A stretch of 64,000 nt of DNA from contig PWXV01000009.1 of the NCBI GenBank assembly GCA_003568415.1, positions 7,042 through 71,041 of the forward strand. Direction: 5' to 3'. Each line of letters begins with the position of its first letter. Position 1 is the first letter of the stretch. The stretch comes from Ignavibacteriales bacterium (GTDB lineage: Bacteria; Bacteroidota; Ignavibacteria; T3Sed10-11). The position numbers and the translations under genes are program-made. A model generated the notes under the pieces. It worked only from the letters and a program-made list of their open reading frames with translations, did not search any database and was not told the origin of the DNA. This document shows positions 1 through 21,486 of this stretch, piece by piece.

Positions 1-2099
1 CAACGAACCCGATCATACAAGAACATATTGACGCTACGCTCAAAGAGTTAAACGGGGAAAAAGGTAAACCTGAATCGTTTTCACATCTCGATGAAATATT
101 ATCGAAACAAAATTTTCGACTATCATTCTGGCGTGTTGCCAATCAGGAACTAAACTATAAAAGGTTCTTTAACATTAATGAGTTAATCTCCATCCGTGTC
201 CAGGATGAGGAAGTATTCCACTCGACGCATTCACTTATTATTGATCTCATTCAACGCGGAATGATCGATGGATTGCGAGTTGATCATATCGATGGTTTAT
301 ATGACCCGGGAGAATACCTTCAACGGTTACGACGGCTATCCGATGAATTATATATCGTTGTTGAAAAGATAATGGAGTATGACGAACATCTTCCGGAAAG
401 CTGGCCGGTTCAGGGAACTTCGGGATATGATTTTCTGAATCACGTAAACGGTTTATTTTGCCACAAAAAACGGCAAAAAGAATTTACGAAACTATACAGC
501 GATTTTATCGGCAGGGAAATTAATTTTTCACAGTTACTCTATGATAAGAAAAAACTGATCATTGATCGCCAATTAACCGGAGACCTTGATAATCTTGCAC
601 ATCTGCTCAAGCAGATTGCTAATAAATACCGGCATGGGCGGGATATCACCTTTAACGGTTTGCGCAACGGTATGATCGAAATACTTACGTATTTCCCCGT
701 TTATCGCACCTATATCAGTAGTTGGGAGGTTGATGAGGAAGACCGTAGAATAATTGAGGAGACCGTAAGAAAAGCACAATCGAGCAAACCTGCCTACGGA
801 GCTGAAATTAAATTGATTGAAAAGTTTCTGCTGCTCGATTTCTTTGAAGAATTAACCGAGGAAGAACGTAACGATTGTATCGACTTTGTGATGAAATTTC
901 AACGTTTAACCGGTCCCCTGATGGCGAAAGGATTTGAAGATACATCATTATATATTTATAACCGATTAATCTCGCTGAACGATGTCGGCGGAGATCCCTC
1001 TTCATTCGGGACATCATTGCATCAATTTCACGACTTTGCAATCAACCGGTTGGATGTTAGTCCGTATGCAATGAATGCCACCTCAACGCACGATACCAAG
1101 CGGGGAGAGGATGTTCGGGCAAGAATAAATGTGCTTTCTGAAATTCCCCGGGAATGGAAACAACATTTAAAACGATGGGTAACGGTCAATAAAAAATTTA
1201 AAAAGAACATAGACGGCAATTTTGCCCCGGACCGTAACGAAGAATACTTGTTATATCAAACATTGCTCGGAATGTATCCATTCGATGAAGGTGAGGCCGA
1301 CAAAGTCATACCGCGGTTGGAACAGTATATTGAAAAGATGTTGCGTGAAGCAAAAGTACACTCCTTCTGGTCAGAACCCAACACGGAGTACGAAACTGCA
1401 GTAAAAGAATTTGTAACGGCAATTCTGACACCGTCTGACCAAAATTTATTCCTCGATGAATTTATACCGTTTCAGAAAAAGATCGCACATTACGGTATAC
1501 TGAATTCATTATCACAAACGATAATTAAATTGACCGCTCCTGGGGTGCCCGATCTATATCAAGGAACCGAGTTGTGGGATTTAAGTTTGGTAGATCCCGA
1601 TAACAGGCGTCCGGTCGATTATAACCTTCGGGATAAATATTTAGATGAAATTGTGGAACGGAGCAGTCGTGAGGATGTCTTTGAGTACCTTTCGATTCTA
1701 CGGTCGAACGCTTCAGACGGAAGAATTAAAATGTTGTTAACCTATAAAACACTCGCTGCACGAAAAGAACATCCAAATGTTTTTCTTGATGGTGAATATA
1801 GCCCATTGCGGCTAACCGGCAAATTACGAAATCACGTTGTAGCGTTCGCCCGCGAATATGAAAATGCCACGGCGGTAACCATTGCACCACGATGGTTCAC
1901 ATCAATTGTTGACGAACAATCATTTCCGCTTGGTAAAAGTGTGTGGGGCGATACTGCTGTTTACCTCCCGCCGCCACGAACGCGGGTGTGGGGAAATGCG
2001 TTGACCGGTGAAAGAATCGAAAAGGGTGGACGTATGCCGGTAGCAGAAATTTTAACAAGTTATCCGACAGCCCTATTAATCAGTAAGGAATATGCATGA
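1..2099 (+). CDS. treY: malto-oligosyltrehalose synthase (GH13), 5'-truncated by window edge
   Basis: The frame with codons starting at position 3 is open from the window edge. It reads ...FWRVANQELNYKRFFNINELISIRVQDEEVFHSTH...GLRVDHIDGLYDP, the conserved TreY core. The first ATG at 261 is internal. The TGA stop at 2097-2099 overlaps the malQ ATG. Confidence 0.85.
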   Translation, partial: TNPIIQEHIDATLKELNGEKGKPESFSHLDEILSKQNFRLSFWRVANQELNYKRFFNINELISIRVQDEEVFHSTHSLIIDLIQRGMIDGLRVDHIDGLYDPGEYLQRLRRLSDELYIVVEKIMEYDEHLPESWPVQGTSGYDFLNHVNGLFCHKKRQKEFTKLYSDFIGREINFSQLLYDKKKLIIDRQLTGDLDNLAHLLKQIANKYRHGRDITFNGLRNGMIEILTYFPVYRTYISSWEVDEEDRRIIEETVRKAQSSKPAYGAEIKLIEKFLLLDFFEELTEEERNDCIDFVMKFQRLTGPLMAKGFEDTSLYIYNRLISLNDVGGDPSSFGTSLHQFHDFAINRLDVSPYAMNATSTHDTKRGEDVRARINVLSEIPREWKQHLKRWVTVNKKFKKNIDGNFAPDRNEEYLLYQTLLGMYPFDEGEADKVIPRLEQYIEKMLREAKVHSFWSEPNTEYETAVKEFVTAILTPSDQNLFLDEFIPFQKKIAHYGILNSLSQTIIKLTAPGVPDLYQGTELWDLSLVDPDNRRPVDYNLRDKYLDEIVERSSREDVFEYLSILRSNASDGRIKMLLTYKTLAARKEHPNVFLDGEYSPLRLTGKLRNHVVAFAREYENATAVTIAPRWFTSIVDEQSFPLGKSVWGDTAVYLPPPRTRVWGNALTGERIEKGGRMPVAEILTSYPTALLISKEYA

Positions 2100-3595
2100 A
2101 AGTACGTAGCAGTGGAATATTACTTCACGTAACATCGTTACCGTCACCCTATGGCGTTGGTGATCTTGGGCCTTCGTCATATGAGTTTGTAGATTTCCTG
2201 GGACGGACCGATCAGAGTATATGGCAATTACTCCCGTTAAACCCAACAGATATGGCGCATGCAAATTCTCCGTACAGCAGTAACTCTGCGTATGCGGGGA
2301 ACCCTCTTCTTATCAATCCGGAGTTTCTGATCGAAGACGGTCTCTTAAAAAAGAAAGATTTGAATCTCAGTGAGCAATTCGACGGCAACAGAATTGATTA
2401 TCATAAGACAACAGAATTTAAAAATAGAATACTCAATATAGCGTTCAATAAATTTCATTCGAAAAACCGGAAACCGGTTGAATATGAACAATTTTGTTCT
2501 GAGGAAGCTTACTGGCTCGATGATTTCGCTTTGTTTGTTGCACTGAAACAAAAATTTAACGGCAGGGTGTGGTCGGACTGGCCTTGGGAAATTCGTGACA
2601 GAGAAAAAAATAGCATCGAAACGTTACGCAATGAATTGCAGGATGAACTTATCAGGCAAAAATTTTATCAATATTTATTTTTTAAACAGTGGAATGCATT
2701 AAAGCTATACGCAAATAATAATAATGTTACATTATTCGGTGATATTCCTATTTATGTAAATTACGATAGCGCTGATGTATGGTCAAATCCTGAAATTTTT
2801 AAATTGAACGGGGAGAAAAAGCCGGTTGCAGTTGCAGGTGTTCCTCCCGATTTGTTCAGTTCTACAGGCCAGCTCTGGGGTAATCCTGTGTTTAATTGGG
2901 AACGTCTTAAAGAAACCGGTTTCCATTGGTGGTTGCAGCGAATACGGCATAATCTCAAGCAATTTAATTTACTCCGTATCGACCACTTCCGTGGATTAGT
3001 TGCATACTGGGAGGTCGGGGCTCAAGAGAGAACAGCAGTCAACGGCAGATGGGTTGATGTACCGGTAACCGAATTTTTAAATACCATCAGTAAATCATTC
3101 CCGAGCTTACCGCTCGTTGCAGAGGATCTCGGGGTTATAACACCGGATGTTCGTGAAACAATGAACAAATATTCTATTCCCGGCATGAAAGTACTCTTGT
3201 TTGCATTTTTTGACGGAATGGAAAAAGGACCATATATCCCGCATAATCATGTCAAAGACTGTATTGTTTATACCGGTACCCACGACAATAACACGGTACG
3301 CGGGTGGTTCGAACAGGAGGCAAGTCAGGCAGATCAACAACGAATATTCGATTATCTCGGCCGGACGGTATCCGCTGATGAGGTTTCGTGGGAATTTATA
3401 CGAATGGCGATGATGTCGATAGCAAATGTTATTATTATACCATTGCAGGATATTCTGGCACTCGGCACCGGGGCACGAATGAACCGACCGGCAACAGCAA
3501 ACGGAAATTGGGAGTGGCGTCTTCAGCAAGACCAGATTACTCCCGATATCGAAAGCAGACTAAAACATATGACTCATCTGTACGGCAGGGGATGA
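2096..3595 (+). CDS. malQ: 4-alpha-glucanotransferase (amylomaltase, GH77)
   Basis: 499 aa. Contains RSSGILLHVTSLPSPYGVGDLG at the N-terminus, LRIDHFRG, and YTGTHDNNT. ATGA overlap with treY. Confidence 0.9.
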   Translation: MKVRSSGILLHVTSLPSPYGVGDLGPSSYEFVDFLGRTDQSIWQLLPLNPTDMAHANSPYSSNSAYAGNPLLINPEFLIEDGLLKKKDLNLSEQFDGNRIDYHKTTEFKNRILNIAFNKFHSKNRKPVEYEQFCSEEAYWLDDFALFVALKQKFNGRVWSDWPWEIRDREKNSIETLRNELQDELIRQKFYQYLFFKQWNALKLYANNNNVTLFGDIPIYVNYDSADVWSNPEIFKLNGEKKPVAVAGVPPDLFSSTGQLWGNPVFNWERLKETGFHWWLQRIRHNLKQFNLLRIDHFRGLVAYWEVGAQERTAVNGRWVDVPVTEFLNTISKSFPSLPLVAEDLGVITPDVRETMNKYSIPGMKVLLFAFFDGMEKGPYIPHNHVKDCIVYTGTHDNNTVRGWFEQEASQADQQRIFDYLGRTVSADEVSWEFIRMAMMSIANVIIIPLQDILALGTGARMNRPATANGNWEWRLQQDQITPDIESRLKHMTHLYGRG

Positions 3596-3727
3596 GACAT
3601 AAAGCTATGGAGTGATTGGTTGATTTTATGAATGAATAGTGTTCATAGTAAATAAGTAACCTCGCAGAGCTCAACGAGCTATATTGTCAACTGTATTCTA
3701 TAGCCAACTGTAAACTGAACCTAAGTC

Positions 3728-4708
3728 TTACAGCCATCCGTATTCCCGGTACCAATCAAGTGTGTTTTTAATGCCTTCCTCGAGTGATACTTTCTGCCGA
3801 TAACCAAAATCATGTTTCGCTGCTTCTACGCTGCAAGACCAATTATCGGCTACCATATCTTTACCTTTTTCGTAATTCAATACAGATGGTTTTTTCTTGA
3901 ATTTTGATAGAAACCCTGAAATTCCCGCTATTCCCATTACAAAAAATTCGGGTATACGTATTTTAATGGTTTTTCGTCCGACCACTTTTGCAGTCACCTC
4001 ACCGATTTGCTGCCAGTTATAAATTTCTTCACTGCCGACAAAATATACTTTTCCTTTGGTTTTTTCCGATAATGTTGCATCAACAATGCCCCCGGCAAGA
4101 TCGTACGCATGTACCAAACTTACCTTTTTGGGTGAAAATCCCACTAATGGAACCAATCCCCGATTTACCGATTGGAAAAACGACAAAGTCGCTGTATCAC
4201 GAGGACCGTACACAGCCGGTGGCCGGATAATTGTAACGGGTATCGAATCGGCATATGTCAATACTGTCTGTTCTGCAGCGAGTTTACTTTCCCCATAAGT
4301 AGTTATTGGTTGGGGAGGGGTGGTCTCATCAACCGGTTTTTCATTTTGTCCGGGTCCGATCGCGGTTGCACTGCTGACGTGCAGAAAGCGTTTGAGTTGG
4401 GTATTATATTTTTGTACCGCATCAAGGATATTTTTAGTGGCAACTACATTTCCGTTGTAAAATCCTTCCCGGTTTTTTGCTGCAACAACTCCCGCAACGT
4501 GTATAACAATATCAACACCGGCTACCGCTTCTTGAAGGGAATCAACATCGTTAAAATTTCCGTATACTAATTGAACCGGTAAGGCTTCAAGCCATTGTAA
4601 ATTACTTGATTTTCGAACAAGACAGCGAACATCATAATTTCTTTTCAATAAATCTTCAACAACATGACTTCCTATAAATCCGGTTCCACCTGTTACTAAT
4701 ATCGTCAT
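3728..4708 (-). CDS. NAD(P)-dependent epimerase/dehydratase-family reductase (extended SDR)
   Basis: 326 aa. Has the N-terminal Rossmann motif ILVTGGTGFIGSH and the catalytic YGESK (YxxxK). Transcribed divergently from the SPT-like gene. Confidence 0.8.
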   Translation of the reverse strand: MTILVTGGTGFIGSHVVEDLLKRNYDVRCLVRKSSNLQWLEALPVQLVYGNFNDVDSLQEAVAGVDIVIHVAGVVAAKNREGFYNGNVVATKNILDAVQKYNTQLKRFLHVSSATAIGPGQNEKPVDETTPPQPITTYGESKLAAEQTVLTYADSIPVTIIRPPAVYGPRDTATLSFFQSVNRGLVPLVGFSPKKVSLVHAYDLAGGIVDATLSEKTKGKVYFVGSEEIYNWQQIGEVTAKVVGRKTIKIRIPEFFVMGIAGISGFLSKFKKKPSVLNYEKGKDMVADNWSCSVEAAKHDFGYRQKVSLEEGIKNTLDWYREYGWL

Positions 4709-4738
4709 GAATACTACCTAGTATGAGTGATCATTCGG

Positions 4739-4767
4739 TTGACTTTTGTGAGGGATTAAAGTATATT
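4739..4767 (+). promoter_or_regulatory. sigma70-like promoter candidate (TTGACT-17 nt-TATATT) upstream of the SPT-like operon
   Basis: Hexamers and 17-nt spacer read directly from the sequence, about 155 nt upstream of the GTG start at 4922. No experimental support. Confidence 0.3.
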
Positions 4768-4921
4768 AAAAAAAATCTGTAATAGCAAATAGCATAAATA
4801 CGCCTAATAAATATGTAATTTCTTGATACCAGGCAATACCCCAATCTTAATCATATCAATGTCCATCTCAACAGTAGATATTCCAATATCGAATAAGAAA
4901 ATATTGTAACGGAGGCAATAC

Positions 4922-6115
4922 GTGGATTTATTTGAAAAATGTCACAACTTTAAGCGAGCAGACGAGGTAAAAGCATTAGGTTATTATCCATATTTCAGAC
5001 CGATTGAAGAAAATGAAGGGCCTGTTGTGCAGATCGAAGGCCGTAAAGTTATTATGGCTGGTTCAAATAATTATCTGGGACTAACAGCAGACCCTCGCGT
5101 GAAGGAAGCTGCCATTCAGGCTGTGGAAAAATATGGAACAGGTTGCTCCGGTTCACGCTATCTAACCGGTACACTCGATCTGCATAATGAATTGGAGAAA
5201 AGACTCGCTGAATATTTTGGAAAAGAAGATTGCCTGCTTTTTAGTACAGGCTACCAGACGGCTCAGGGTATTATACCAACCCTCGTACAAAAAGGTGAGT
5301 ATGTTGTATCTGATAGAGATAACCATGCCTGTATAGTTGCCGGTAATCTTATGGCAAAGGGCGCTTTTGCCGACATAGCTCGTTATAAACACAACAATAT
5401 GAAGGATCTCGAGCGAGTCATTACTCAAATCCCAAAAGAAAAGGGGAAACTTATTGTTACGGACGGAGTCTTCAGCACCACCGGTGAGATAGTTGATCTT
5501 CCCGAACTTGTTCGCATTGCGAAGGAGAATAATGCAAGAATTCTCGTAGATGATGCACACTCTGTGGGTGTAATCGGAAAGGGCGGACGCGGTACGGCAA
5601 GCCACTTCGGTCTCGAGGACGAGATAGATATGACCATGGGCACGTTCAGTAAAACGTTTGCGTCGCTCGGTGGCTTCGTAGTCGGTGAACGTGCGGTAAT
5701 AAATTACATAAAACACCATGCTCCGGCTCTCATTTTCTCTGCAAGTCCGACACCTGCTGCTGTTGCCGCTGCCATTGCCGCACTTGATATTTTACTTGAG
5801 AGTCCGCACTTGATTGAAAGACTTATAAAAAATTGTGATAAAATGCGGAAGGGATTTAAAGAGCTCGGATTTAAAATTATTGACGGGCAAACGGGTGTTG
5901 TACCGGTAATTATCGGAGATGATATGAAAACATTCATATTCTGGAGACAATTATTCGATGCCGGTGTCTTTGTCAATGCATTTATTAGTCCGGGTGTCCC
6001 CCCGGGTATGCAAATGCTCCGTACAAGTTATATGGCTACTCACGAGGATGAACATCTCGATGCAATTATCGAGATATTCGGTAAAATTGGTAAAGAACTC
6101 GGGGTGATATCATAA
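4922..6115 (+). CDS. PLP-dependent alpha-oxoamine synthase, serine palmitoyltransferase-like
   Basis: 397 aa. GTG start preceded by ACGGAGG. Blocks [25 protein letters not shown] and [15 protein letters not shown] (PLP lysine) resemble bacterial Spt more than Kbl/BioF. The C-terminus is also Kbl-like, so substrate specificity is unproven. Confidence 0.8.
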
Positions 6116-6131
6116 TTATATTTATCAGCTA

Positions 6132-7289
6132 TTGAATAATACATATCTGGGAGCTATGGCAATTCAATCAAATGCTGTCAAAATTGTACCGGTTACTACC
6201 AAACGAGACCGCGAACGGTTCATCAAAATGGTATGGCCGTTGTATAAGGATTATCCCAATTGGGTCCCCCCCTTATTACTCGATAGAAGGATGATACTTG
6301 ATACGAAGAAAAATCCTTTTTATCAACACGCTGATATTCAGTTATTTCTTTCCTATCGTAACAATGAAATTGTCGGCAGAATTGCAGCTATTTTGAATCA
6401 TAACCACAATTCTTTTCACAATGAGAACGTGGGATTCTTTGGATTTTTTGAATCCATAAATGATCAAACTGTTTCAAACATGCTGATAGAGAAAGCAAAA
6501 GAATGGCTTTCAGAGAGGGGAGCAGAATCAATTCGCGGTCCGATGAATCCTTCAACAAATGATGACATCGGCACTTTAGTGGAAGGATTTGACAAGCCAC
6601 CCGCTGTTATGATGCCGTACAATCCTGAATATTATGATGATCTAATGAGAGGTGCCGGATTGGAAAAAGTGAAAGACATTTACAGTTACTACGTCCATCG
6701 GGATCAGGTGTTTGGAGGGAAACTTTTCCGTGTTATGGAAAAACTAAAACAAAGGGAAACGTTTAAAATAAGACCACTTAACATGAAAGATTTCAAGGCT
6801 GAATTGAATCGAGTTAAAGTTGTTTATAATAATGCCTGGTCAAAAAACTGGGGATTTGTTCCTATGACCGATGCCGAGTTTGACCACCTTGCCGACAGTT
6901 TTAAACAAATCGTTGATCCCCGCATTGTCTTATTTGCAGAAAAAGATGACCAACCGGTAGGATTCGGTCTTTCAGTTCCAGATATAAATCAGATTCTCAT
7001 ACGCAATAAAAAAGGCCGTTTAATACCGGGAGCATTGCGGTTGTTGCTGAACAAGAAGAAAATTGATTTTATCAGGATAATACTGCTCGGGGTAATACAC
7101 GAATATCAACGGGGAAGCGCAGGGGCTATATTATTTTATGAAACGGCCGTTCGCGGAGTACAATATGGCTATTATCACGGCGAAGCAGGGTGGGTTCTTG
7201 ACAATAATATCATGATGCAGCGAGCAGCCGATTTTTTAAATGCCGAGCGATACAAAACATACAGAATATATGAAGCACCAATAGCTTAG
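6132..7289 (+). CDS. uncharacterised two-lobed GNAT-fold N-acyltransferase
   Basis: 385 aa. FGFFES...NPSTNDDIGTLVEGFD in the N-terminal half and a GNAT-like QRGSAGAILFYE core near the C-terminus. Lies 16 nt after the SPT-like gene. The start is ambiguous: TTG at 6132 or ATG at 6156. Confidence 0.55.
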   Translation: MNNTYLGAMAIQSNAVKIVPVTTKRDRERFIKMVWPLYKDYPNWVPPLLLDRRMILDTKKNPFYQHADIQLFLSYRNNEIVGRIAAILNHNHNSFHNENVGFFGFFESINDQTVSNMLIEKAKEWLSERGAESIRGPMNPSTNDDIGTLVEGFDKPPAVMMPYNPEYYDDLMRGAGLEKVKDIYSYYVHRDQVFGGKLFRVMEKLKQRETFKIRPLNMKDFKAELNRVKVVYNNAWSKNWGFVPMTDAEFDHLADSFKQIVDPRIVLFAEKDDQPVGFGLSVPDINQILIRNKKGRLIPGALRLLLNKKKIDFIRIILLGVIHEYQRGSAGAILFYETAVRGVQYGYYHGEAGWVLDNNIMMQRAADFLNAERYKTYRIYEAPIA

Positions 7290-7300
7290 AGGTTTGTTAT

Positions 7301-8212
7301 TTGAAAAAAACTGATTATATCTGGATGAATGGTTCATTGATTGAGTGGGATAAGGCCACCATCCATGTATTATCCCATGTCGTTCATTATGGTTCATCAT
7401 GGTTTGAAGGAATCCGTTGTTATAAAACTAAACGAGGAAGCGCCGTCTTTCAATTAATTCCACATCTCGAAAGATTGGTTGATTCAGCAAAGATATACCG
7501 CACCACTGTTCCATACTCTATTGATGAGCTTAGTAATGCAACACTTGAAGTAATTCGTGCAAATAATTTGGAAAGCTGCTATATCCGGCCTGTTGTCTAT
7601 AGAGGATTCTACGAATTAGGAGTGAATCCACTTCGATGTCCTATTGAGACTGTTATTGCCACCTGGGAATGGGGGCATTATCTCGGAGTTGATTCAATCA
7701 AAAACGGAATTGATGTTATGACCTCAAGTTGGAGGCGCTTTGCCGGCTCCACTATTCCCGCAATGGCAAAAGCAGGCGGTAATTATATTAATGCGCAACT
7801 TATAAAAATGGAAGCACTTGAAAATGGTTACGCTGAGGGACTAGTTCTTGATGGTCATGGAAATATTAGTGAGGGCAGCGGTGAGAATATTTTTATTGTA
7901 AAAGACGGCATTCTTTATACTCCGCCTTTGGCGTCAGGTGTTTTATATGGAATTACACGTGGTGTTGTTTTGCGATTAGCTGAAGAAGAAGAAGTAGATA
8001 TTCGTGAGCAAGTAATTCCACGGGAGTTTATCTATACAGCCGATGAAGTATTTTTCACCGGAACCGCAGCAGAAATAACACCGGTGAAAACCATCGATAA
8101 AATCAGTATCGGCACCGGTAAACCTGGTGCGATAACAATGCTGCTCCAGGACCGGTTTTATCGTATAACACGTGATGGAATTGATGAGCACAATTGGTTA
8201 ACGTGGTTATAA
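7301..8212 (+). CDS. ilvE: branched-chain amino acid aminotransferase (class IV)
   Basis: 303 aa. Contains IWMNG...W, EGIRCY, KAGGNYINAQL and GSGENIF. TTG start 11 nt after the GNAT gene. Confidence 0.85.
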   Translation: MKKTDYIWMNGSLIEWDKATIHVLSHVVHYGSSWFEGIRCYKTKRGSAVFQLIPHLERLVDSAKIYRTTVPYSIDELSNATLEVIRANNLESCYIRPVVYRGFYELGVNPLRCPIETVIATWEWGHYLGVDSIKNGIDVMTSSWRRFAGSTIPAMAKAGGNYINAQLIKMEALENGYAEGLVLDGHGNISEGSGENIFIVKDGILYTPPLASGVLYGITRGVVLRLAEEEEVDIREQVIPREFIYTADEVFFTGTAAEITPVKTIDKISIGTGKPGAITMLLQDRFYRITRDGIDEHNWLTWL

Positions 8213-8253
8213 CGCAATATTAACGATGTATAATTAACATCAGGGATTCAACT

Positions 8254-8763
8254 ATGGTACCTATTGACCGAATTCTCGTTCCAATCGATTTTTCCTCCTA
8301 TTCAAAAAAAGCTCTGCAATATGCTGTTCCGTTTGCCCGCAAATTTAAGGGTGAAATTCTACTGCTCCACGTTGTTGAACCGGCAATTTATCCTGCTGAT
8401 TTTAACTTCGGGCAGGTCGGAATACCTTCAATTGAAGATGAATTAAAGACGAAAGCAGAGGAAGAATTAAAGAAACTGCAGGAAAAAGAAACGAAACGTC
8501 GTGCACGATCATCAATAATGGTGCGTGTCGGTAAACCGTTCATAGAAATAATTACGGCTGCAAAGGAAGAAAATATTGATCTGATTATTATGGCCACCCA
8601 CGGTCATTCCGGTATTGAACAGATCTTGTTCGGAAGCACGGCAGAGCGTGTCGTCAGAAAGGCACACTGCCCGGTATTAACTGTACGAACGCAAGAGATG
8701 TATGAGAAAACAATAGAGGTTGAAAAAAAGTACGGGAAAAGTAAGCGAGGCAAAAGCGAGTAA
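8254..8763 (+). CDS. universal stress protein family
   Basis: 169 aa. ILVPIDFS...LLHV...DLIIMATHGHSG...GSTAERVVRKAHCPVLTV is the UspA ATP-binding pattern. Confidence 0.8.
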   Translation: MVPIDRILVPIDFSSYSKKALQYAVPFARKFKGEILLLHVVEPAIYPADFNFGQVGIPSIEDELKTKAEEELKKLQEKETKRRARSSIMVRVGKPFIEIITAAKEENIDLIIMATHGHSGIEQILFGSTAERVVRKAHCPVLTVRTQEMYEKTIEVEKKYGKSKRGKSE

Positions 8764-8765
8764 TG

Positions 8766-9761
8766 CTATTTTGTTCGCTCTATTGCAAACGTGACGAGTT
8801 CTTTGATAGCGTCTTTTGCAGATGATTCGGATAGTGGTTCTATGCATGCACGTGCTCGTTCGGCATATTCTACGGCTTTTTTAGATGCATACTCCAATCC
8901 GCCTTGATTATCGACAAAATCTATAACGTAATCAATTTCTTTCCTCGATGCACCGTTTTTAATTATTCGAACGATCTTCCGGTTACTTCTCTTATCTGCT
9001 TTTTTCAGGGCGTAAATTAACGGCAACGTGAATTTCTTTTCTTTCATATCAATACCTGTTGGTTTTCCGGTTATTATAGAACGGCCTATATAATCCAACA
9101 AGTCATCGCGTATCTGAAAAGCCATACCCAGGTTCTCACCAAAGTCACGCAATCGTTTCCACTGTTCTTTATCGTCGGTCACACTGGCTGCTCCGAGTTC
9201 ACAACACGTTCCGATGAGCGAGGCGGTTTTTCCCGAAATAATTTGAAAATATGTTTCTTCAGTGATGTCGTATGTTTTACTCTTCTGTATTTGCAGCAGT
9301 TCGCCTTCACTCATTCGTTTTACGGAATCTGAGATTATCTTCAAAAAATAAAACTCATCCTGTTCGAGAGCGATAAGCAGTCCACGGGCGAGAAAATAAT
9401 CACCCATAAGAACTGCAACTTTATTTTTCCATATACGATTTATTGAGGGAAGACCTCGTCGGGTATCGGATTGATCAACAACATCATCGTGAACGAGTGT
9501 GGCTGTGTGAAGAATTTCCACAAGGGTTGCTGCACGGTACGTTCGCTCGTTAACCGAACCGATTAAATTTGCCGATAGAAAAACAAGAATAGGACGGATT
9601 TTTTTACCCTTCTGGCGGGCAATATATCGTGCTACCGTGTCGACAATACCCACACGGGAGCGCATCTCTCGTTTAAAATGTTTTGAGAATGATTTTAAAT
9701 CTTCTTGTATTGGAGAACTTATTTTTTTCAGATTCACAGACCTGACCTTAGATTCGAACAT
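8766..9761 (-). CDS. ispB: long-chain polyprenyl diphosphate synthase
   Basis: 331 aa. Has two aspartate-rich motifs, LVHDDVVD and FQIRDDLLD. Confidence 0.85.
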   Translation of the reverse strand: MFESKVRSVNLKKISSPIQEDLKSFSKHFKREMRSRVGIVDTVARYIARQKGKKIRPILVFLSANLIGSVNERTYRAATLVEILHTATLVHDDVVDQSDTRRGLPSINRIWKNKVAVLMGDYFLARGLLIALEQDEFYFLKIISDSVKRMSEGELLQIQKSKTYDITEETYFQIISGKTASLIGTCCELGAASVTDDKEQWKRLRDFGENLGMAFQIRDDLLDYIGRSIITGKPTGIDMKEKKFTLPLIYALKKADKRSNRKIVRIIKNGASRKEIDYVIDFVDNQGGLEYASKKAVEYAERARACIEPLSESSAKDAIKELVTFAIERTK

Positions 9762-9771
9762 ATTGATAAAT

Positions 9772-10587
9772 TCAGGCGGGCTCTTCCTGGGCTAATTCTC
9801 GTTTTCTCATTGCAACACGGGATATAAATATACTGAATTCATATAAGAGAAGCAACGGAATTGCAAGTATCGCCATACTGACGATATCAGCCGGTGTTAT
9901 GAGCGCTGCTACGATGAGCAACAAAGTATACGCGTGCCGGCGATAAAAACGCATAAATGCCGGGGTTAATATACCGAGTCGCGATAAAAAGAATGAAACC
10001 ATCGGCATTTCAAAAACAAGACCTGCCGCAATCATCAACCTGAGCACAAAACTCATATATTCATTAATTGCTATGGTGTTTTCTATTGCGGTAGTCCCGA
10101 AGCCGGCAAAAAATTGCAATGTTATCGGTAGCATAATAAAATAAGCAAATGCAACACCAATGAAAAAACAAAGCGAGGAAAACGCAACTATTGCAAAAAT
10201 ATACCGTCGTTCGTGTGGGTAAAGACCGGGCTCAATAAATTTCCAGAACTGATATAATATTATCGGAACACTGAGAATAAAACCGCCGAGGAGTACAACC
10301 TGCATATAGACGAGCACCTTGCCGTATGGTTTGAGATTTATAATCGCAAGTGCAGGAGATGCCTGTAATACAGGACGTAACAATACATCCTCAACAAGCC
10401 AGTGCCCGATTATTGCACAAAAGATTGCAGCAACGACAACGCCCCCGAGTGCTTTAATTATTCTCCAGCGTAGCTCCTCGAGATGATCGAGGAAGTGCAT
10501 TTCAACCTTTTTACCACGTTTATTTTCCGGCGGGGTTTCCTGTTCTGTCGTATCTGTCTGATGGTTTGTTTCCTGCTCGGTGTCCAT
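9772..10587 (-). CDS. tatC: twin-arginine translocase subunit TatC
   Basis: 271 aa. HLEELRWRIIK motif followed by six hydrophobic segments. The acidic N-terminal extension makes the start uncertain. Confidence 0.85.
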   Translation of the reverse strand: MDTEQETNHQTDTTEQETPPENKRGKKVEMHFLDHLEELRWRIIKALGGVVVAAIFCAIIGHWLVEDVLLRPVLQASPALAIINLKPYGKVLVYMQVVLLGGFILSVPIILYQFWKFIEPGLYPHERRYIFAIVAFSSLCFFIGVAFAYFIMLPITLQFFAGFGTTAIENTIAINEYMSFVLRLMIAAGLVFEMPMVSFFLSRLGILTPAFMRFYRRHAYTLLLIVAALITPADIVSMAILAIPLLLLYEFSIFISRVAMRKRELAQEEPA

Positions 10588-10601
10588 AGGATATATTGCT
10601 A

Positions 10602-11912
10602 TTAAGCTCTGTCAAATTCGAGTTGGTCGGCATACAGTGGAAATTTGCTGCATAACTCTCCAATTTCTTTTTTTACTAAAACGCGCTCGGCTTCGCTACT
10701 TTTTGTGGCAATGACGCGGTCAATAAAACCGGCAATCATTCTCATTTCATCTTCTTTCATACCCCGTGTTGTCATAGCGGCAGTACCGATGCGAATACCA
10801 CTGGTCACAAATGGTGATTTATCATCAAATGGAACCATATTTTTATTCACGGTTATGCCTGCCTCTTCAAGAATATTTTCGGCATCTTTGCCGGTAATAT
10901 CTTTTGAGCGAAGATCCACAAGCATTAAATGATTATCGGTACCACCAGAAACTACTGAAAACCCCCGGTCCATCAACCCATCGGCAAGCACCTGTGCATT
11001 CTTAATGACCTGTTTTGCATATTCAACAAAACCCGGTTCCAATGCTTCACCGAATGCCACCGCTTTCGCTGCGATAATGTGCATAAATGGTCCACCCTGA
11101 ATCCCGGGCATAACTGTGCTGTCGAATAGTTCAGACATTTTCTTTACGCGGCCGCTCTTCGGTGCAGTTATGCCAAAGGGGTTTTCTTTATCTTTTCCGA
11201 CGAGTAATAAACCACCTCGCGGACCCCGTAATGTTTTATGTGTTGTGGATGTTACCGCATCACAGTAGGGGAGCGGGCTCGTTAATAATTTTGCAGCAAT
11301 AAGACCCGCCGGGTGAGCAATATCCGCAAGTAAAATTGCTCCCACCTGGTCTGCAATCTCACGAAATGCTTTAAAATCAATATCGCGCGAGTAAGCGCTT
11401 CCACCTGTAATTATAAATTTTGGTTTTTCTTTGTTGGCGACATCTTTTACCTGATCATAATCGATACGACCGGTTTGTTTATCGACACCATATGATACGA
11501 TGCGATACATCTTTCCGGAAAAGTTAACCGGTGAACCATGGGTTAGATGTCCGCCGTGCGAAAGATCCATACCTAACACGGTATCGCCCGGTTTTACGGC
11601 AGTGAAATATACTGCCATGTTTGCCTGCGATCCTGAGTGTGGCTGAACATTCGCATATTCAGCGTCGAATAATTTTTTAGCACGATCCCGTGCGATATTC
11701 TCAACCTCATCTACAAATTCGCACCCGCCGTAATAACGTTTGCCGGGATATCCTTCGGCATATTTGTTTGTCATTACCTGTCCGGAAGCTTCCAGGACGG
11801 CTTGACTGACAAAGTTTTCGGATGCAATTAATTCAAGGGTACTATTTTGACGATTATATTCTTTTTGTACGGTTCCAAATACCTCTGCATCTTGTGCTTT
11901 TAAATGTTGCAC
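10602..11912 (-). CDS. glyA: serine hydroxymethyltransferase
   Basis: 436 aa. Contains [24 protein letters not shown] and [14 protein letters not shown] (PLP lysine). GTG start. Confidence 0.95.
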
Positions 11913-11945
11913 TATTCTCCCTTATAGTAATGAAACATTGATGAA

Positions 11946-12383
11946 TTATTTTTTGGTGAGCGAATGAATTTTTTCAACGCGATCGGCGTGGCGGCCACCT
12001 TCAAATTCCGTATCAAGAAATACCGTAATAATTTCGACTGCCGTGTCCCAGCCAATTAACCGTTCACCGATTGTAAGAACATTAGCGTTGTTATGTAACC
12101 GGGCAAGACGGGCTGCTTCGGGTATCTGGCACATAGCAGCACGAACACCCTTGTGTTTGTTTGCCACTATTCCCACACCGATGCCCGTACCACAAACAAA
12201 AATACCTCTCTCACATTCTCCTTGAGAGATTGCCTCAGAAGCAGCGTGAGCAAAATCGGGATAATCTGAACGCTCATCTGAAGATGCGCCATAATCCTTA
12301 AAGGAGATCCCACGTTGTTGCAGGATCTCCTTTATTTTTTCTTTAAACGTATAACCGGCGTGATCGCTTGCAATTGCTATCAT
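11946..12383 (-). CDS. rpiB: ribose-5-phosphate isomerase B
   Basis: 145 aa. Contains IAIASDHAGY and GIFVCGTGIGVGIVANK. Confidence 0.9.
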   Translation of the reverse strand: MIAIASDHAGYTFKEKIKEILQQRGISFKDYGASSDERSDYPDFAHAASEAISQGECERGIFVCGTGIGVGIVANKHKGVRAAMCQIPEAARLARLHNNANVLTIGERLIGWDTAVEIITVFLDTEFEGGRHADRVEKIHSLTKK

Positions 12384-12392
12384 ATTCTACGA

Positions 12393-13724
12393 TTATCTAA
12401 AATGTGCGGGTACAGTGATCTCTTCGTTGATCCATTCATAGCAGTTTCCGAAAATGGCTATTTTTCCATTACTGATCAGATCACGATTAAAGAAATAATC
12501 TTCATCCTGAGGAATGAGATTATCTAAAAACTGTGCTCGTTCCTGTGCACGACGTGCAACTCGTTGATCGATTTGCGCTGCTCGTTGGTAATATTCCTGA
12601 GCAAGTTTATAGACAATTCTATCTTCAAGTTGCATATTTGCCCAACCACCTTTTGTATTAACAACACATCTTTCAATCACTTCTTCATATATGGTAGCGA
12701 TCTCTATTAATGGTTCACCCCAACTCGGGTCCATACGTTGCGCACGCCTTGCATATTCGCGTGCCTGCCGATGATTACCAAGTTGCCGGTAACCCTGCGC
12801 TATGTTCAATGGAATTGCGCGATCGTCGGGTTTTAACCGCATTAACTGACTGTATGCACGAATCGCCTCGCGGGTTTGATTTGTTCGCTCGTACAAGCGT
12901 GCAAGTTCATTCCAGTATGTTTCCGATTCAGGGCGTAGTTCGGTTAATTTTTGGACATGCGGTATAGCCTTTTGATATTCTTGTGCAGCATTGTATGCCT
13001 GCACGAGGCTCCATATGTTTGCCGGATTATCTGGATCGGTTCTAAGTGTTTCCTCAGCTAGCCGGATTAATTCCTGCGGATCACGAACCAGGCGGCGTAG
13101 TCGCTCCATTGCTGTCGCGCTATCGGGGTCACGTTCGGTCAAGTATTTCTGATAAAGGTCTATTGCTCGCTGTTCATAATCATTGTCCGGACCACGATTA
13201 TCCATTAAAAGATTGCCGAGTCGATCAATATATTGGAAATCAATGTTATCAAAATCTAATTCAACCGCTTTCTGATAAGTTCTTATTGATTCCTCAATTT
13301 TCGGTGGTGAATAATAGTTATCATAAAAGTGCGCCTTTTGCAGATAATAGGTATTCGCGCGATCAGGCAGATGCTCAATACCTCTCTGAAAGATGTAAAT
13401 AATAGTATCGACATACGCAACCTGTTTTTCCGTATCGTCGGTTTGCAGATATAACTGTCGATAACACTCTGCAAGGTTACCGTAGAGCGCTCTGAACCTT
13501 GTAGGATGGAGTTCCATTACTTTCCATCCGTACGGAATTGCTCGTTCATAATAACCGTTTCGGTAGTCTTCGAAGAATAGACTCCAGTTCATAAGAACCT
13601 GCTGCATATCGACTTGATCAAGTGTATCAGCCGATGCCGATTCGGTTGAAACCGCCTGGTTTGGCATGCCTAAAGCTACCAGACAGACGAATATTAAACT
13701 AATTAACGTTTTCAAGGCTACCAC
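12393..13724 (-). CDS. secreted tetratricopeptide-repeat protein
   Basis: 443 aa. N-terminal signal-like hydrophobic segment and multiple TPR-like A/Y/L-spaced helices. The start may instead be the TTG 9 nt downstream, behind GAGGTG. Confidence 0.6.
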   Translation of the reverse strand: MVALKTLISLIFVCLVALGMPNQAVSTESASADTLDQVDMQQVLMNWSLFFEDYRNGYYERAIPYGWKVMELHPTRFRALYGNLAECYRQLYLQTDDTEKQVAYVDTIIYIFQRGIEHLPDRANTYYLQKAHFYDNYYSPPKIEESIRTYQKAVELDFDNIDFQYIDRLGNLLMDNRGPDNDYEQRAIDLYQKYLTERDPDSATAMERLRRLVRDPQELIRLAEETLRTDPDNPANIWSLVQAYNAAQEYQKAIPHVQKLTELRPESETYWNELARLYERTNQTREAIRAYSQLMRLKPDDRAIPLNIAQGYRQLGNHRQAREYARRAQRMDPSWGEPLIEIATIYEEVIERCVVNTKGGWANMQLEDRIVYKLAQEYYQRAAQIDQRVARRAQERAQFLDNLIPQDEDYFFNRDLISNGKIAIFGNCYEWINEEITVPAHFR

Positions 13725-13769
13725 CTCATTGTAAACAATGAATAGATATACTATTATTTATTTTCATTT

Positions 13770-15026
13770 TCACTCTATTCTTGGCGGTACGAACCAACGC
13801 TCAAACATATTCAGTGAAAAATACACTCTAAAAAGGGTGTCGCGTTGAAGATTGTTATCTGTTGTTCCACGCACACCAACTTGTGCTCCTATATCTAAAA
13901 CAGCAATTCCACTAAGCGGAATTCCCATACCAAAGGTAACGAGCGTTTCATTTATCGGGGTTCCCCGAATATTAAAATACGAAGCATTGTATAAAAACCC
14001 TAATCGAAATGTTGTTCTTTCAAAAAATCCGCTGCCTATTTCTTGCCGTCCGTGTCGCTCCCATCCAGCCCCGAATCTGTATGAATTACGGAGCTGATTA
14101 TCCGGATTCCCGAACTTCCTAAAATCTTCCCAGGGTTCGTACCGCAGGTCAATCGCGATAGTATTCCGGCGGTCAATATTATAGCTAATACCTATACCGG
14201 CTATATACGGCAGTTCGATTGTACCGGTTCGTGTGGTCGTAGTATCCACACCAATATCATAATTTATTGTGTAATCTTCTTCTACATTAAGTCGTGATGG
14301 TGTTGTAAAAGTAAGTCCAATCGTCAATGGTCCCGGCTGATTTTCTTGCCGCGAAGGTAACAATCCGCTGAAATTAATACCGAAATGTCCGGCAAGACCA
14401 TTTACATCCAGATCACGAAGCGTATATCCGGAACTATAGCCGGGTAATGTATATTGATTGCTCCATTCATATGTTAAAATACCCATTCTATACATTGCCA
14501 TAGCACCGATTGACAGGTTTCTGCTAAAACGGTAGGAGGTTCCGGCATATATATTTGTAATACCTCCTGACCCACGATGTTCGGTTATCTGACTACCATC
14601 TTCGATTTCACGTGTTGTTTCTATATTATAACCAACCCTGGTCATTGGTGCGAATCCGAGGGATAACGTAATTCCCCGGGATGGCATAACCGGCATAGCC
14701 AGTGTAGCTCCATTAATAGTACCGGTGCCAATGCCTCCGGTATTAATGCCATCGTCGAAATTGATGTTTTCATAGAATAACGAACCGGTAAATTGTACAA
14801 CCTGCAAATCACTCCAGGCTGCCGGATTAGAGAGGTTTAAATTACCGGGGCCACGAAGTGCAAGCCCTGTACCTCCCATACCCAATGATCGTACACTTCC
14901 CATATGAAGGCGTTCACCAACTCCAAACCGGGAGTATGCGGATCCTCCGGTTGCCCATGCTATTTCCAGGCCGAAAAAGAGTAAAATCGTAATTATTGTA
15001 ATCTTGCGTAGATGCATTTTCTCCAT
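13770..15026 (-). CDS. outer-membrane beta-barrel protein, FadL/PorV-like
   Basis: 418 aa. Signal peptide, a hatch-like RSLGMGGTGLAL...NPAAW motif, and alternating aromatic/Gly beta-strand pattern throughout. Confidence 0.45.
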   Translation of the reverse strand: MEKMHLRKITIITILLFFGLEIAWATGGSAYSRFGVGERLHMGSVRSLGMGGTGLALRGPGNLNLSNPAAWSDLQVVQFTGSLFYENINFDDGINTGGIGTGTINGATLAMPVMPSRGITLSLGFAPMTRVGYNIETTREIEDGSQITEHRGSGGITNIYAGTSYRFSRNLSIGAMAMYRMGILTYEWSNQYTLPGYSSGYTLRDLDVNGLAGHFGINFSGLLPSRQENQPGPLTIGLTFTTPSRLNVEEDYTINYDIGVDTTTTRTGTIELPYIAGIGISYNIDRRNTIAIDLRYEPWEDFRKFGNPDNQLRNSYRFGAGWERHGRQEIGSGFFERTTFRLGFLYNASYFNIRGTPINETLVTFGMGIPLSGIAVLDIGAQVGVRGTTDNNLQRDTLFRVYFSLNMFERWFVPPRIE

Positions 15027-15039
15027 ACCCTCTTAATTT

Positions 15040-16215
15040 TTACAAACGTGAATAAATAATCTTCAACCGTGGCCTTTTTGTTGCATCTTCCGCCTGCTCT
15101 GTATAAAAGGACGTTCGATGTAATCCAAGTGTTTCATGATCGTCACGTATGATTAACCCATTATTATCTTCGACCGTAGCCCACGCCTGGGTAATTTCAC
15201 TGACGGTTGCCCTGTAAATTGTTGTGTTTTCGCCGGTTTCAACACGAATAAGTTCACCCCGGTTTGCTTCCCGAACAGTAAATTTGTTGACATCAATAAT
15301 GTGATGGGCGAACAAGCTGTCAACGATTGTCGGGTGCGGTATGCTCAAGTCAGGATTTTTTGTCAATTCAAGCTGTGCATTATGAATCAATGCACCTCTC
15401 GGTAATTCACTAATATCAAAACGAACAATAGCGCGGGTTGCCGTGCCGGCCTGAACAATGAGATTGTTCTGTAAATCGGGATCATCTTTCAAATTAGCCG
15501 CAAATGCACGGGCATTGCGTGAGAAAACAACAGTATCCTGTTCTTCCTCAGAGCCATAAATGATTCGTAACCGTGGTGCATTATCATCGGCCGAACCACC
15601 GAATCCGATAATACCGTTAGCATCTTCGTTACTTTTAAGTATTAAACCCTGCGGTATCACTGATTGTTCACCTTTTTCAGCCCACTTGCGCATAAGAGGG
15701 CGAGGAAGTGAGAACTCAACCGCATTCGTGTCACCGAGCATTACCGAACTGGTATACAGCGATTCGTTCCCGCGGTTAATTATTTCAAACACGTCACGGT
15801 TAAAACCTTCAGGTGACCAACCACTTAGCACTTCAAAGAGCTCAACTGAAATCGTTTCAGTTGAATCACCTAGATAATATTCCGGAGTGAGGTAGAGTGT
15901 AGCATCAAACACCTCTGATGCATCAATAGTATCCGGTGTTATATTTCGATCGGTAAGCAACGAATCGAACCGGAAAATACTCATAACTCGTTTCTTTTCA
16001 TTTTCACCGACAAATAGTGTGGGTGAACCGCCTGTAGTGGTCGGTACATCAACTGAGAAAGATTCATATGCATCGATGATCAATGTATCGATAGCGATAA
16101 AATCCTCATCAGGTAATATTCCCTCGCCGACAGAAGTCGGGTCTTCATCACACCCTGTCGTGAACGTTATCAGTATTATAACGGCACCCAGCAATAATAA
16201 TAATTCAGGTCTCAC
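15040..16215 (-). CDS. lipoprotein, DUF4270-like
   Basis: 391 aa. Lipobox ...FTTGC followed by DEDPTSVGEGILPDED. Composition and position next to glgA recall the DUF4270 lipoproteins of Bacteroidota. This was not verified by search. Confidence 0.4.
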   Translation of the reverse strand: MRPELLLLLGAVIILITFTTGCDEDPTSVGEGILPDEDFIAIDTLIIDAYESFSVDVPTTTGGSPTLFVGENEKKRVMSIFRFDSLLTDRNITPDTIDASEVFDATLYLTPEYYLGDSTETISVELFEVLSGWSPEGFNRDVFEIINRGNESLYTSSVMLGDTNAVEFSLPRPLMRKWAEKGEQSVIPQGLILKSNEDANGIIGFGGSADDNAPRLRIIYGSEEEQDTVVFSRNARAFAANLKDDPDLQNNLIVQAGTATRAIVRFDISELPRGALIHNAQLELTKNPDLSIPHPTIVDSLFAHHIIDVNKFTVREANRGELIRVETGENTTIYRATVSEITQAWATVEDNNGLIIRDDHETLGLHRTSFYTEQAEDATKRPRLKIIYSRL

Positions 16216-16221
16216 GTTTCT

Positions 16222-16815
16222 CTACCACATCCTTTCCTGTTTTTTCCATTCCTTACATTTTTGTTCTATAAATGACATACTATCATATAAAGATGATACG
16301 ACAATATCAACACCCTCCGGTTTCTTATCCCGGTTAGCCAGCAGGGTGGAGCCATACCCGGTCATCACTAAAACAGTAGCAGCGCCAATTCGATTCCCTG
16401 CCTCAATATCACTCATGCGGTCACCCACCATAATCGACTGATTTAGATTAATATTGTGTTCACGAACGGCTTTCTCAAACATACCGGTATTTGGTTTGCG
16501 GCAGGAGCACTCGTTATCGTTTGATGGATAATGCGGACAATAGTAGATAGCGTCAATCACCGCTCCTTCATCGTTGAGCATTCCCAATAATCGGGCATTG
16601 ACGTTTTCCACATCATCTTCTGTCATAATACCACGGGCAACACCTGATTGATTTGAGACAACAATGGTCTTCAAATTCATTCTCCGGGCTTCACGAATTA
16701 CCGTGGCTGCTCCGGGAATTAGTTCGAGGTCAACCGGGTCTTTAATAAAATTTTTCTCCACGTTAATCGTCCCGTCCCTATCAAGAAATAAACAGCTATG
16801 CAGACCCGTCATCAC
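16222..16815 (-). CDS. gmhB: HAD-IIIA phosphatase, D,D-heptose 1,7-bisphosphate phosphatase-like
   Basis: 197 aa. Contains FLDRDGTIN, SNQSGVARG, CPHYPSNDNECSCRKP (Zn loop) and VGDRMSD. 4-nt overlap with glgA. Confidence 0.75.
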   Translation of the reverse strand: MMTGLHSCLFLDRDGTINVEKNFIKDPVDLELIPGAATVIREARRMNLKTIVVSNQSGVARGIMTEDDVENVNARLLGMLNDEGAVIDAIYYCPHYPSNDNECSCRKPNTGMFEKAVREHNINLNQSIMVGDRMSDIEAGNRIGAATVLVMTGYGSTLLANRDKKPEGVDIVVSSLYDSMSFIEQKCKEWKKQERMW

Positions 16816-18299: not shown

Positions 18300-18385
18300 C
18301 TTAATCCGTGAATTTCCGCTGTAAAATATTATAATTTAATGATTTATTGCAAAAATTGCAACTAAGTCAATAATCTATTCCCTTA

Positions 18386-20169: not shown

Positions 20170-20182
20170 CCCCGACGGTTCC

Positions 20183-21166: not shown

Positions 21167-21383
21167 TAAATAACTTTCTTTCTTGGTGGCGTAACAGTAA
21201 AATCATTGCAAAAAAATATCAGCCACATACTAATGAGCATTTGCCTAAAACATAGTCTAGAAAATGATTTTGTTTTCGCTTGCCCGCCGTTTTTGGGTGG
21301 GGCTGTGTCGCATTTATATAAACTTAAAATTTACCTAAAATTCCACAAAATAACAAGTTAGCCTGTTCACCATCTCCCGGTAA

Positions 21384-21409
21384 TGTAACCTTCATAAGGG
21401 TCTGACGTA
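21384..21409 (+). promoter_or_regulatory. ECF-sigma-type promoter candidate (tGTAAC-16 nt-CGTA)
   Basis: AAC at 21387-21389 and CGT at 21406-21408 are separated by exactly 16 nt, about 75 nt upstream of the GTG at 21487. This rests on the motif only and no ECF sigma gene lies in the window. Confidence 0.2.
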
Positions 21410-21486
21410 TACTATTACGTTACAAATAATGATTTTTTAAAATAACTGGTGTATATTATAACATAAACAAATAAGGAGGAACCGTC

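Follow-up and report, generated by a model that had tools for sequence, protein, structure and literature searches.

The DNA analysed in this work is a stretch of 64,000 nucleotides (the window, hereafter, always meaning this whole 64-kb stretch) of contig PWXV01000009.1, assembled from an Ignavibacteriales bacterium (GCA_003568415.1). Within it we have focused on a compact group of genes, located between positions 3728 and 8212, that probably encodes a bacterial pathway for ceramide synthesis. Coordinates are based on a list of the open reading frames (ORFs) of the window with their translations, and ORF proteins were searched against Pfam, NCBIfam and PDB sequences. The first gene (3728-4708, reverse strand, 326 aa) codes for an extended short-chain dehydrogenase/reductase (SDR) of the NAD-dependent epimerase/dehydratase family (PF01370), a putative CerR-like ceramide (3-keto) reductase, and is separated by a divergent spacer of 213 nt (4709-4921) from three genes on the forward strand. 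These are an alpha-oxoamine synthase (AOS) assigned to serine palmitoyltransferase (Spt) of the Bacteroidota/deltaproteobacterial, acyl-CoA-type subgroup (4922-6115, 397 aa, with a GTG start), a predicted tandem-GNAT N-acyltransferase of the bCerS/CerS/YghO family (6156-7289, 377 aa) and IlvE, a class IV branched-chain amino acid aminotransferase (7301-8212, 303 aa).

The original prediction, made from the letters and the ORF list, had described the same four ORFs, and for the ORFs as listed both its motifs (GGTGFIG and YGESK in the SDR, and two AOS blocks of 18 and 15 residues) and its gaps of 16 and 11 nt were confirmed. The ORF of the middle protein is also there, and only its size and the gap before it had to be corrected. 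It is open from a TTG at 6132 (6132-7289, forward strand, 385 aa), leaving 16 nt to the AOS gene and 11 nt to ilvE. However, the most likely start is the ATG at 6156, which gives 377 aa and a 40-nt gap after spt, since a GGGAG precedes this ATG and the database copy and the homologues measure 372-377 aa. The divergent spacer between the cerR-like gene and spt contains a Shine-Dalgarno sequence, GGAGG at 4911-4915, seven bases upstream of the GTG at 4922, and a sigma-70-like match, TTGACT-17-TATATT, at 4739-4767 (forward strand). The latter is taken as a candidate promoter only, because the count of promoter-like sites in the scanned region was not above the shuffled expectation.

The AOS matches the Pfam family of class I/II aminotransferases (PF00155, 1e-54), and its best NCBIfam model is NF047600 (SerpalmtaseCFB) with 491 bits, followed by the BioF/Kbl subfamily model (382 bits), Kbl (365) and BioF (363). 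Compared with PDB chains (phmmer), it scores 403 bits with the SPT of Sphingobacterium multivorum (SmSPT) and ca. 277 with that of Sphingomonas, against 258 bits at most for the BioF/Kbl-type chains, 226 and 209 bits for two cysteate-C-fatty acyltransferases, 176 for ALAS and 121 for CqsA. BLAST identities follow the same ranking (48% to SmSPT, 33% to E. coli Kbl and 30% to E. coli BioF), and in a neighbour-joining tree the window AOS falls into one clade with SmSPT, at a clear distance from Kbl and BioF. As had been predicted, by its sequence the AOS falls with Spt, to which it is closer than to Kbl, BioF, HemA, CqsA or SulA. A more prosaic explanation would be that the gene is a housekeeping kbl or bioF lying beside an unrelated acetyltransferase and a sugar-nucleotide epimerase. 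The NCBIfam BioF/Kbl models do score this protein at 360-380 bits too, and the generic family matches of the SDR are sugar epimerases and dehydratases. However, no tdh or bio gene is found nearby, Ser243 and Ala274 of the AOS are replaced by Gly and Asn in Kbl and by Gly and Thr in BioF, and the trio of genes is kept across phyla, including orthologues of a biochemically proven SPT (see below). Residues, neighbours and the cross-phylum trio effectively refute this explanation, which we regard as hardly conceivable.

The active site points in the same direction. The residues whose roles have been described in SmSPT (Asn52, Gly80, Ser81, His138, Ser185, Asp210, Ala212, His213, Thr241, Ser243, Lys244, and Ala274; PMC10196870) are all kept in the window AOS. 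The first four correspond to N49, G77, S78, and H135, and from S185 onward (S185, D210, A212, H213, T241, S243, K244, and A274) the numbers are the same in both proteins. Among them are the Schiff-base lysine K244 and the pyridoxal 5'-phosphate (PLP) set H135, D210, and H213, which align with SmSPT K244, H138, D210, and H213, and all the residues that contact serine directly or via water (N49, G77, S78, H135, S243, and K244). The only changes in the pocket region are Phe83 to Tyr and Met271 to Ile, both conservative.

Position 274 bears also on a capnine or sulfonolipid route, already listed as an alternative in the original prediction. In a route of this kind, acylation of cysteate (SulA/CapB type) would fall to the AOS and reduction of dehydrocapnine to the SDR, and the GNAT protein would be the missing N-acyltransferase. 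The logic of such a pathway is the same, with the same AOS fold at the first step and then a reductase, sulfonolipids do occur in Bacteroidota (PMC9304779), and the cysteate-C-fatty acyltransferase chains are detectable homologues of the AOS, with the 226 and 209 bits given above. The similarity to SPT is nevertheless much higher (403 bits). Moreover, Radka et al. (PMC9304779) state that Lys281 tells the sulfonolipid enzyme SulA from Spt, where an Ala stands, and this position equals Ala274 of SmSPT, whose main-chain nitrogen binds the PLP phosphate (PMC10196870). It is Ala in the window AOS and in 51 of the 51 cluster-linked synthases. Among those genes of the window that were scanned, a part of its ORFs, none was recognised as a cysteate synthase. 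Scores, SPT active-site residues, Ser243 and Ala274 together disfavour the capnine route as well as the Kbl/BioF explanation, and we consider the former very improbable.

The middle protein had been described as an orphan GNAT-fold acyltransferase of no assigned function, a view that has to be abandoned. It has no useful match of its own in Pfam (E ≤ 0.01), NCBIfam or PDB sequences; some RecA matches in the PDB search were discarded as spurious, since they add up six repeats, each worth about 3 bits, within concatenated RecA chains. Yet its family comprises more than 7,700 homologues, E. coli YghO among them, many of which have a GNAT Pfam match (PF00583) and which are annotated as "hypothetical," "GNAT superfamily," "GNAT family N-acetyltransferase," or even "dATP pyrophosphohydrolase." The GNAT fold itself was confirmed by an AlphaFold2 model built with 53 homologues (pLDDT 87, pTM 0.87). 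Over the whole length of this model, the top Foldseek matches are tandem-GNAT acyltransferases (probability 1.0, E 1e-9 to 4e-13), including glucosamine N-acetyltransferase (5KF1), the clavulanate tandem GNAT (2WPW), MAB_4324 (7q3a being among the top hits) and the mycothiol synthase MshD.

The family can be narrowed down by way of better-known relatives. YghO of E. coli, found by tblastn of plasmid records, is 33.7% identical over 377 aa (E 2e-69), a Roseomonas marmotae protein annotated as "dATP pyrophosphohydrolase" is 35.9% identical over the full length (E 9e-82), and a GNAT protein of Bacteroides finegoldii is 30% identical, also over the full length. Padilla-Gomez et al. (2022; PMC9386255) list CC_1154, yghO ECD_02850 and Swit_3908 together as the acyl-CoA N-acyltransferase required for dihydroceramide synthesis. 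In Roseomonas the homologue comes directly after two LptF/LptG paralogues, and the same locus includes a pair formed by an acyl carrier protein (ACP) and an AOS, and another formed by a fatty acyl-AMP ligase and an NAD-epimerase. This gene order matches that of Caulobacter CC_1152 to CC_1168 (CC_1154 cerS, CC_1155/1156 lptG2/F2, CC_1162 spt, CC_1163 acpR, CC_1164 cerR, and CC_1165 aasR; PMC11324152), and the Roseomonas GNAT sits in the bCerS position. Given the full-length homology to YghO and to the Roseomonas protein, the listing of YghO with CC_1154 and the Roseomonas synteny, the middle protein is, by sequence, a member of the bCerS/CerS family with a predicted role as N-acyltransferase, which is the class proposed originally.

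Some of the records retrieved with this protein deserve a separate mention. A complete sphingolipid cluster of the Caulobacter type is present in the E. coli PN43 record NZ_MG591698 (approximately 1-10122), where the neighbours of yghO code for LptF/LptG paralogues, a fatty acyl-AMP ligase, an NAD-epimerase, an ACP, and an AOS. This cluster matches ECD_02850 to ECD_02854 of strain BL21 (PMC9386255). In Roseomonas marmotae, a whole sphingolipid locus (5698-21690) of the rhodobacterial type is located on p1318-4, a 320-kb replicon recorded as a plasmid. Its genes code for ACP, Spt, a CDP-alcohol transferase, LptF/G paralogues, bCerS, an acyl-AMP ligase and a CerR-like SDR, and the label "dATP pyrophosphohydrolase" of its bCerS homologue is apparently a misannotation. 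Similar matches to the middle protein occur in about a dozen plasmid records of Roseomonas. A metagenome-assembled genome (MAG) of Myxococcaceae has two tandem bCerS-like paralogues (7001-9372), 44 and 34% identical to the middle protein; neither an AOS nor an SDR homologue occurs within 7 kb of them. Finally, full-length bCerS-like homologues with 35-42% identity are found in actinobacterial records of Rubrobacter, Nonomuraea, and Streptomyces.

The third component, the divergent SDR, matches PF01370 (1.5e-40) and has its GxxGxxG motif (GGTGFIG) at residue 7 and its YxxxK motif (YGESK) at residue 138. For a closer comparison, a profile hidden Markov model (HMM) was made from 35 SDRs that flank Spt-bCerS in other phyla, leaving out the window, its nearest relatives and Proteobacteria. 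The window SDR scores 424 bits with this model, and the two proteobacterial CerR-like proteins, the SDR of the E. coli yghO cluster and the one in the CerR position of Roseomonas, score 214 and 205 bits, respectively, against 93 and 65 bits for the only two negative controls, E. coli GalE and HldD. There is thus moderate support, from sequence profiles, for the SDR being a CerR member, nearer to proteobacterial CerR-like reductases than to GalE or HldD, in agreement with what had been proposed.

The original prediction had also suggested looking at co-occurrence of the genes in related genomes. A scan of a genome collection with the middle protein provided 80 loci, to which the window proteins were compared by tblastn. 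In 53 of the 80, spread over many phyla, the gene directly before the GNAT homologue codes for an AOS, and in 38 the same locus has an SDR homologue, either upstream and divergent or directly downstream. Among the loci with enough flanking DNA (n = 53), 37 have the AOS and 26 both the AOS and the SDR. With the AOS directly upstream in 53 loci and the SDR in 38, the clustering of Spt and bCerS goes far beyond chance. The lineages involved include Ignavibacteria, Chitinophaga, Mucilaginibacter, Gemmatimonadota, Zixibacteria, Elusimicrobia, KSB1, TA06, Oligoflexia, and Desulfarculaceae, the nearest relatives of the window being MAGs labelled Ignavibacteriales or Bacteroidetes (isolates CSSed and T3Sed). 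The SDR gene is upstream and divergent in the window and in the Ignavibacteria-like MAGs, and directly downstream in Chitinophaga, Gemmatimonadota, KSB1, and others. The linked AOSs of Chitinophaga and Mucilaginibacter are ca. 70% identical to the biochemically characterised SmSPT, and therefore the conserved trio is tied to true Spt enzymes. In three Chitinophaga and 11 Mucilaginibacter loci spt is followed directly by bCerS, and in Chitinophaga and M. limnophilus the SDR comes next after bCerS.

Taken as a whole, we estimate a probability of about 0.85 that the cluster encodes a bacterial pathway for de novo (dihydro)ceramide synthesis, the interpretation advanced originally and supported by the present analysis. 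What we have observed are the family assignments and the conserved linkage, and from them we infer the substrates, the order of the steps and the lipid product. Spt (4922-6115) would form 3-ketosphinganine by condensation of L-serine and a long-chain acyl thioester, bCerS (6156-7289) would N-acylate this long-chain base and the product of the divergent CerR-type gene (3728-4708) would reduce the 3-keto group, yielding dihydroceramide. The acylation-first order is borrowed by analogy from the Caulobacter model, and an alternative order of acylation and reduction has been proposed (PMC11324152). The acyl thioester is probably an acyl-CoA, given the lack of any dedicated ACP or acyl-ACP synthetase: the absence of adjacent genes of this kind, remarked upon in the original prediction, extends to the complete 64-kb window, in which we found no homologue of the ACP, acyl-AMP ligase, LptF/G paralogue, CDP-alcohol transferase, diacylglycerol kinase-like protein or nucleotidyltransferase of the rhodobacterial sphingolipid loci. 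Two Spt subgroups have been distinguished, a rhodobacterial one that always co-occurs with AcpR and AasR and a Bacteroidetes/deltaproteobacterial one that is found without them (PMC9386255), and the lack of ACP and acyl-AMP ligase genes in the window fits the second.

Several observations weigh against the ceramide interpretation. The link of the window proteins to the experimentally validated enzymes (CCNA_01212, CCNA_01222, BF9343_4218, and BF9343_4240) is indirect, via E. coli YghO and the Roseomonas synteny. The assignment of the SDR to CerR is drawn largely from gene linkage, together with a modest HMM preference; its best NCBIfam model is HpnA, far below the cut-off, as are the OleD and sugar epimerase models, and its identity to proteobacterial CerR-like proteins is just 26-30% (30% to the SDR of the E. 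coli yghO cluster). This SDR has no N-terminal extension or visible signal before the Rossmann motif at residue 7, whereas the Caulobacter model, in which acylation precedes reduction, places CerR in the periplasm; the passages that report this location do not describe an export signal. The literature searched gave nothing relevant on Ignavibacteria together with Spt or sphingolipids, and we found no lipid data for this group. Lastly, the 491 bits of the AOS with NF047600 do not reach the curated equivalog cut-off of 640.

This last value is also of interest for a variant in which the same three enzyme families act on another amino acid or make another product, such as 1-deoxy-ceramides from alanine, glycine-derived bases or a further-modified keto-ceramide. 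The end product would be a sphingolipid-like N-acyl amino-alcohol lipid different from the canonical dihydroceramide. Besides scoring under the Spt equivalog cut-off, the AOS is just 48% identical to SmSPT and has the two pocket-region substitutions, F83 to Y and M271 to I. SmSPT itself takes L-Ala and Gly at low efficiency (PMC10196870), and environmental 1-deoxyceramides have been attributed in the literature to Bacteroidota and Desulfobacterota. On the other hand, all the serine-contacting residues (N49, G77, S78, H135, S243, and K244) are kept, and I271 is common to 34 of the 51 cluster AOSs, including that of Chitinophaga, itself ca. 70% identical to SmSPT. We consider a substrate or product of this kind unlikely, and canonical dihydroceramide synthesis from serine remains our preferred interpretation.

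Among known systems, the pathway of Caulobacter crescentus (CC_1162 Spt; CC_1154/CCNA_01212 CerS; CC_1164/CCNA_01222 CerR) uses the same three families, including a tandem GNAT of ca. 380 aa, whose homology to the window protein was shown via the E. coli and Roseomonas proteins from clusters of that type. The Caulobacter genes are spread over 17 genes, whereas those of the window form a tight operon plus one divergent gene, with neither AcpR/AasR nor nearby LptF2/LptG2 or head-group genes, and the identity of the window proteins to their proteobacterial counterparts is just 26-37%. The yghO cluster of E. coli BL21 and other strains (ECD_02850 to ECD_02854), in which YghO is 34% and the SDR 30% identical to the window proteins, is of the rhodobacterial type, with the ACP, acyl-ACP synthetase and LptF/LptG paralogues that the window lacks. 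The SPT of S. multivorum (PDB 3A2B, 8GUH) is of the same Spt subgroup, with its 48% identity and all of its active-site residues kept. The clusters of Chitinophaga and Mucilaginibacter have Spt and then bCerS, in the same order as the window, although in Chitinophaga, Gemmatimonadota, and others the SDR is downstream on the same strand instead of upstream and divergent. Bacteroides and Porphyromonas (BT_0870 Spt; BF9343_4218 CerS; BF9343_4240 CerR; BT_0972 KDSR) have an Spt of the same subgroup too, and the B. finegoldii GNAT (30%) belongs to the same family as the window bCerS. The genes of Bacteroidales are dispersed and those of the window are clustered. As to the sulfonolipid pathway (SulA/CapB plus a reductase), the window differs in having Ala at the position of SulA K281 and in an AOS far less similar to the cysteate acyltransferases than to SPT.

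Downstream of bCerS, IlvE passes the threshold of its NCBIfam model (NF005146, 416 bits against a cut-off of 279), and its gene is located where the original prediction had put it. It is, however, no conserved member of the cluster. Besides the window, ilvE follows bCerS in only two of the 80 loci, L003 and L004. The other 76 loci lack ilvE at this position, and so do L001 and L002, two loci with an Spt 92-95% identical to that of the window, where a universal stress protein (USP) gene comes directly after bCerS. The USP gene of the window (8254-8763, forward strand; PF00582 at 3.3e-38) begins 41 nt past ilvE on the same strand, and the scan found no terminator-like site between both (8212-8254), so that it is possibly the last gene of the spt transcript. 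It is downstream in L001 to L004, a synteny limited to the closest relatives. In our view, both genes are probably passengers, particular to this lineage, that are transcribed together with the cluster.

It is possible that IlvE supplies branched 2-keto acids for iso-branched acyl primers, as had been suggested, although no result of this analysis calls for such a role. If so, it might be a functional fourth member of the pathway, feeding branched 2-keto acids into an iso-branched base and iso-branched N-acyl chains and being co-regulated with Spt and bCerS. The 11-nt gap between bCerS and ilvE and their common strand suggest co-transcription, and the arrangement is kept in L003 and L004. The branched-chain sphingolipids of Bacteroides reportedly depend on branched-chain amino acid metabolism, which would count in favour of such a fourth member, and the alpha-galactosylceramides of B. 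fragilis derive, according to a review, from branched-chain fatty acid metabolism. Against it stand the absence of the gene at this position in L001, L002 and the other 76 loci, the fact that IlvE passes an ordinary equivalog threshold for housekeeping branched-chain aminotransferases, and the consideration that a genome with a single ilvE would require it for amino-acid synthesis regardless. A functional fourth member is therefore, in our opinion, doubtful. The same goes for the broader and equally tentative idea that the ceramide operon has recruited both ilvE and the USP gene, coupling branched-chain transamination and stress signalling to the synthesis of iso-branched sphingolipids. If true, this would be a dedicated primer-supply arrangement, of which we found no description for bacterial sphingolipid clusters, and it would imply sphingolipid production in a group for which we found none reported.

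Elsewhere in the window, the ORFs that were scanned resemble ordinary chromosomal genes, with functions such as glycogen and trehalose metabolism, glyA, tatC, secA, a subtilase and FadL-like porins. The subtilase (Peptidase_S8, 28416-30593, forward strand) bears a Por_Secre_tail domain, the C-terminal sorting domain of the type IX secretion system, consistent with the earlier statement that the host has this system. FadL/TodX-like outer-membrane proteins are encoded at 13770-15026 (reverse strand), where the match is weak (23 bits, below cut-off), and at 62033-63274 (forward strand), where it is strong, and there is a classical short-chain dehydrogenase at 42154-42975 (reverse strand). Any connection of these proteins to lipid uptake or 3-keto reduction is speculative. 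The serine hydroxymethyltransferase gene glyA (10602-11912, reverse strand), found 2.4 kb downstream of the operon, probably has a housekeeping function. Beyond the synteny with tatC and ispB seen in close relatives, its position beside the cluster is not conserved. At gathering thresholds, an Rfam scan of the window, with no dedicated tRNA scan run, gave no riboswitch, tRNA or other RNA family.

Regarding novelty, which the original prediction had implied, the pathway, the clustering of its genes and their wide phylogenetic spread are already published, and no new question is opened by this locus. Ding et al. reported that spt, bCerS and CerR are "often found clustered" and defined, in MAGs of 38 phyla, a clade of Spt-like proteins that have bCerS and CerR co-localised with them (the predicted producers amounting to ca. 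40 phyla). Because this clade has been defined, the cluster described here has to be taken as an ordinary example of a known pathway. It adds small refinements. One is the tight clustering of spt and bCerS, in some cases also of cerR, in several Bacteroidota lineages (the Ignavibacteria-like MAGs, Chitinophaga, and Mucilaginibacter), unlike the arrangement known from the literature on sphingolipid-producing Bacteroidota such as gut Bacteroidales, in which the sphingolipid genes are dispersed and not in close proximity. Another is the presence of ilvE, and perhaps of the USP gene, as probable recruits to the operon in the lineage of the window. In addition, a gene of ca. 380 aa on which Pfam and NCBIfam are silent can be annotated as a ceramide synthase of the bCerS family, and an Ignavibacteria-like lineage is added to the predicted bacterial sphingolipid producers.

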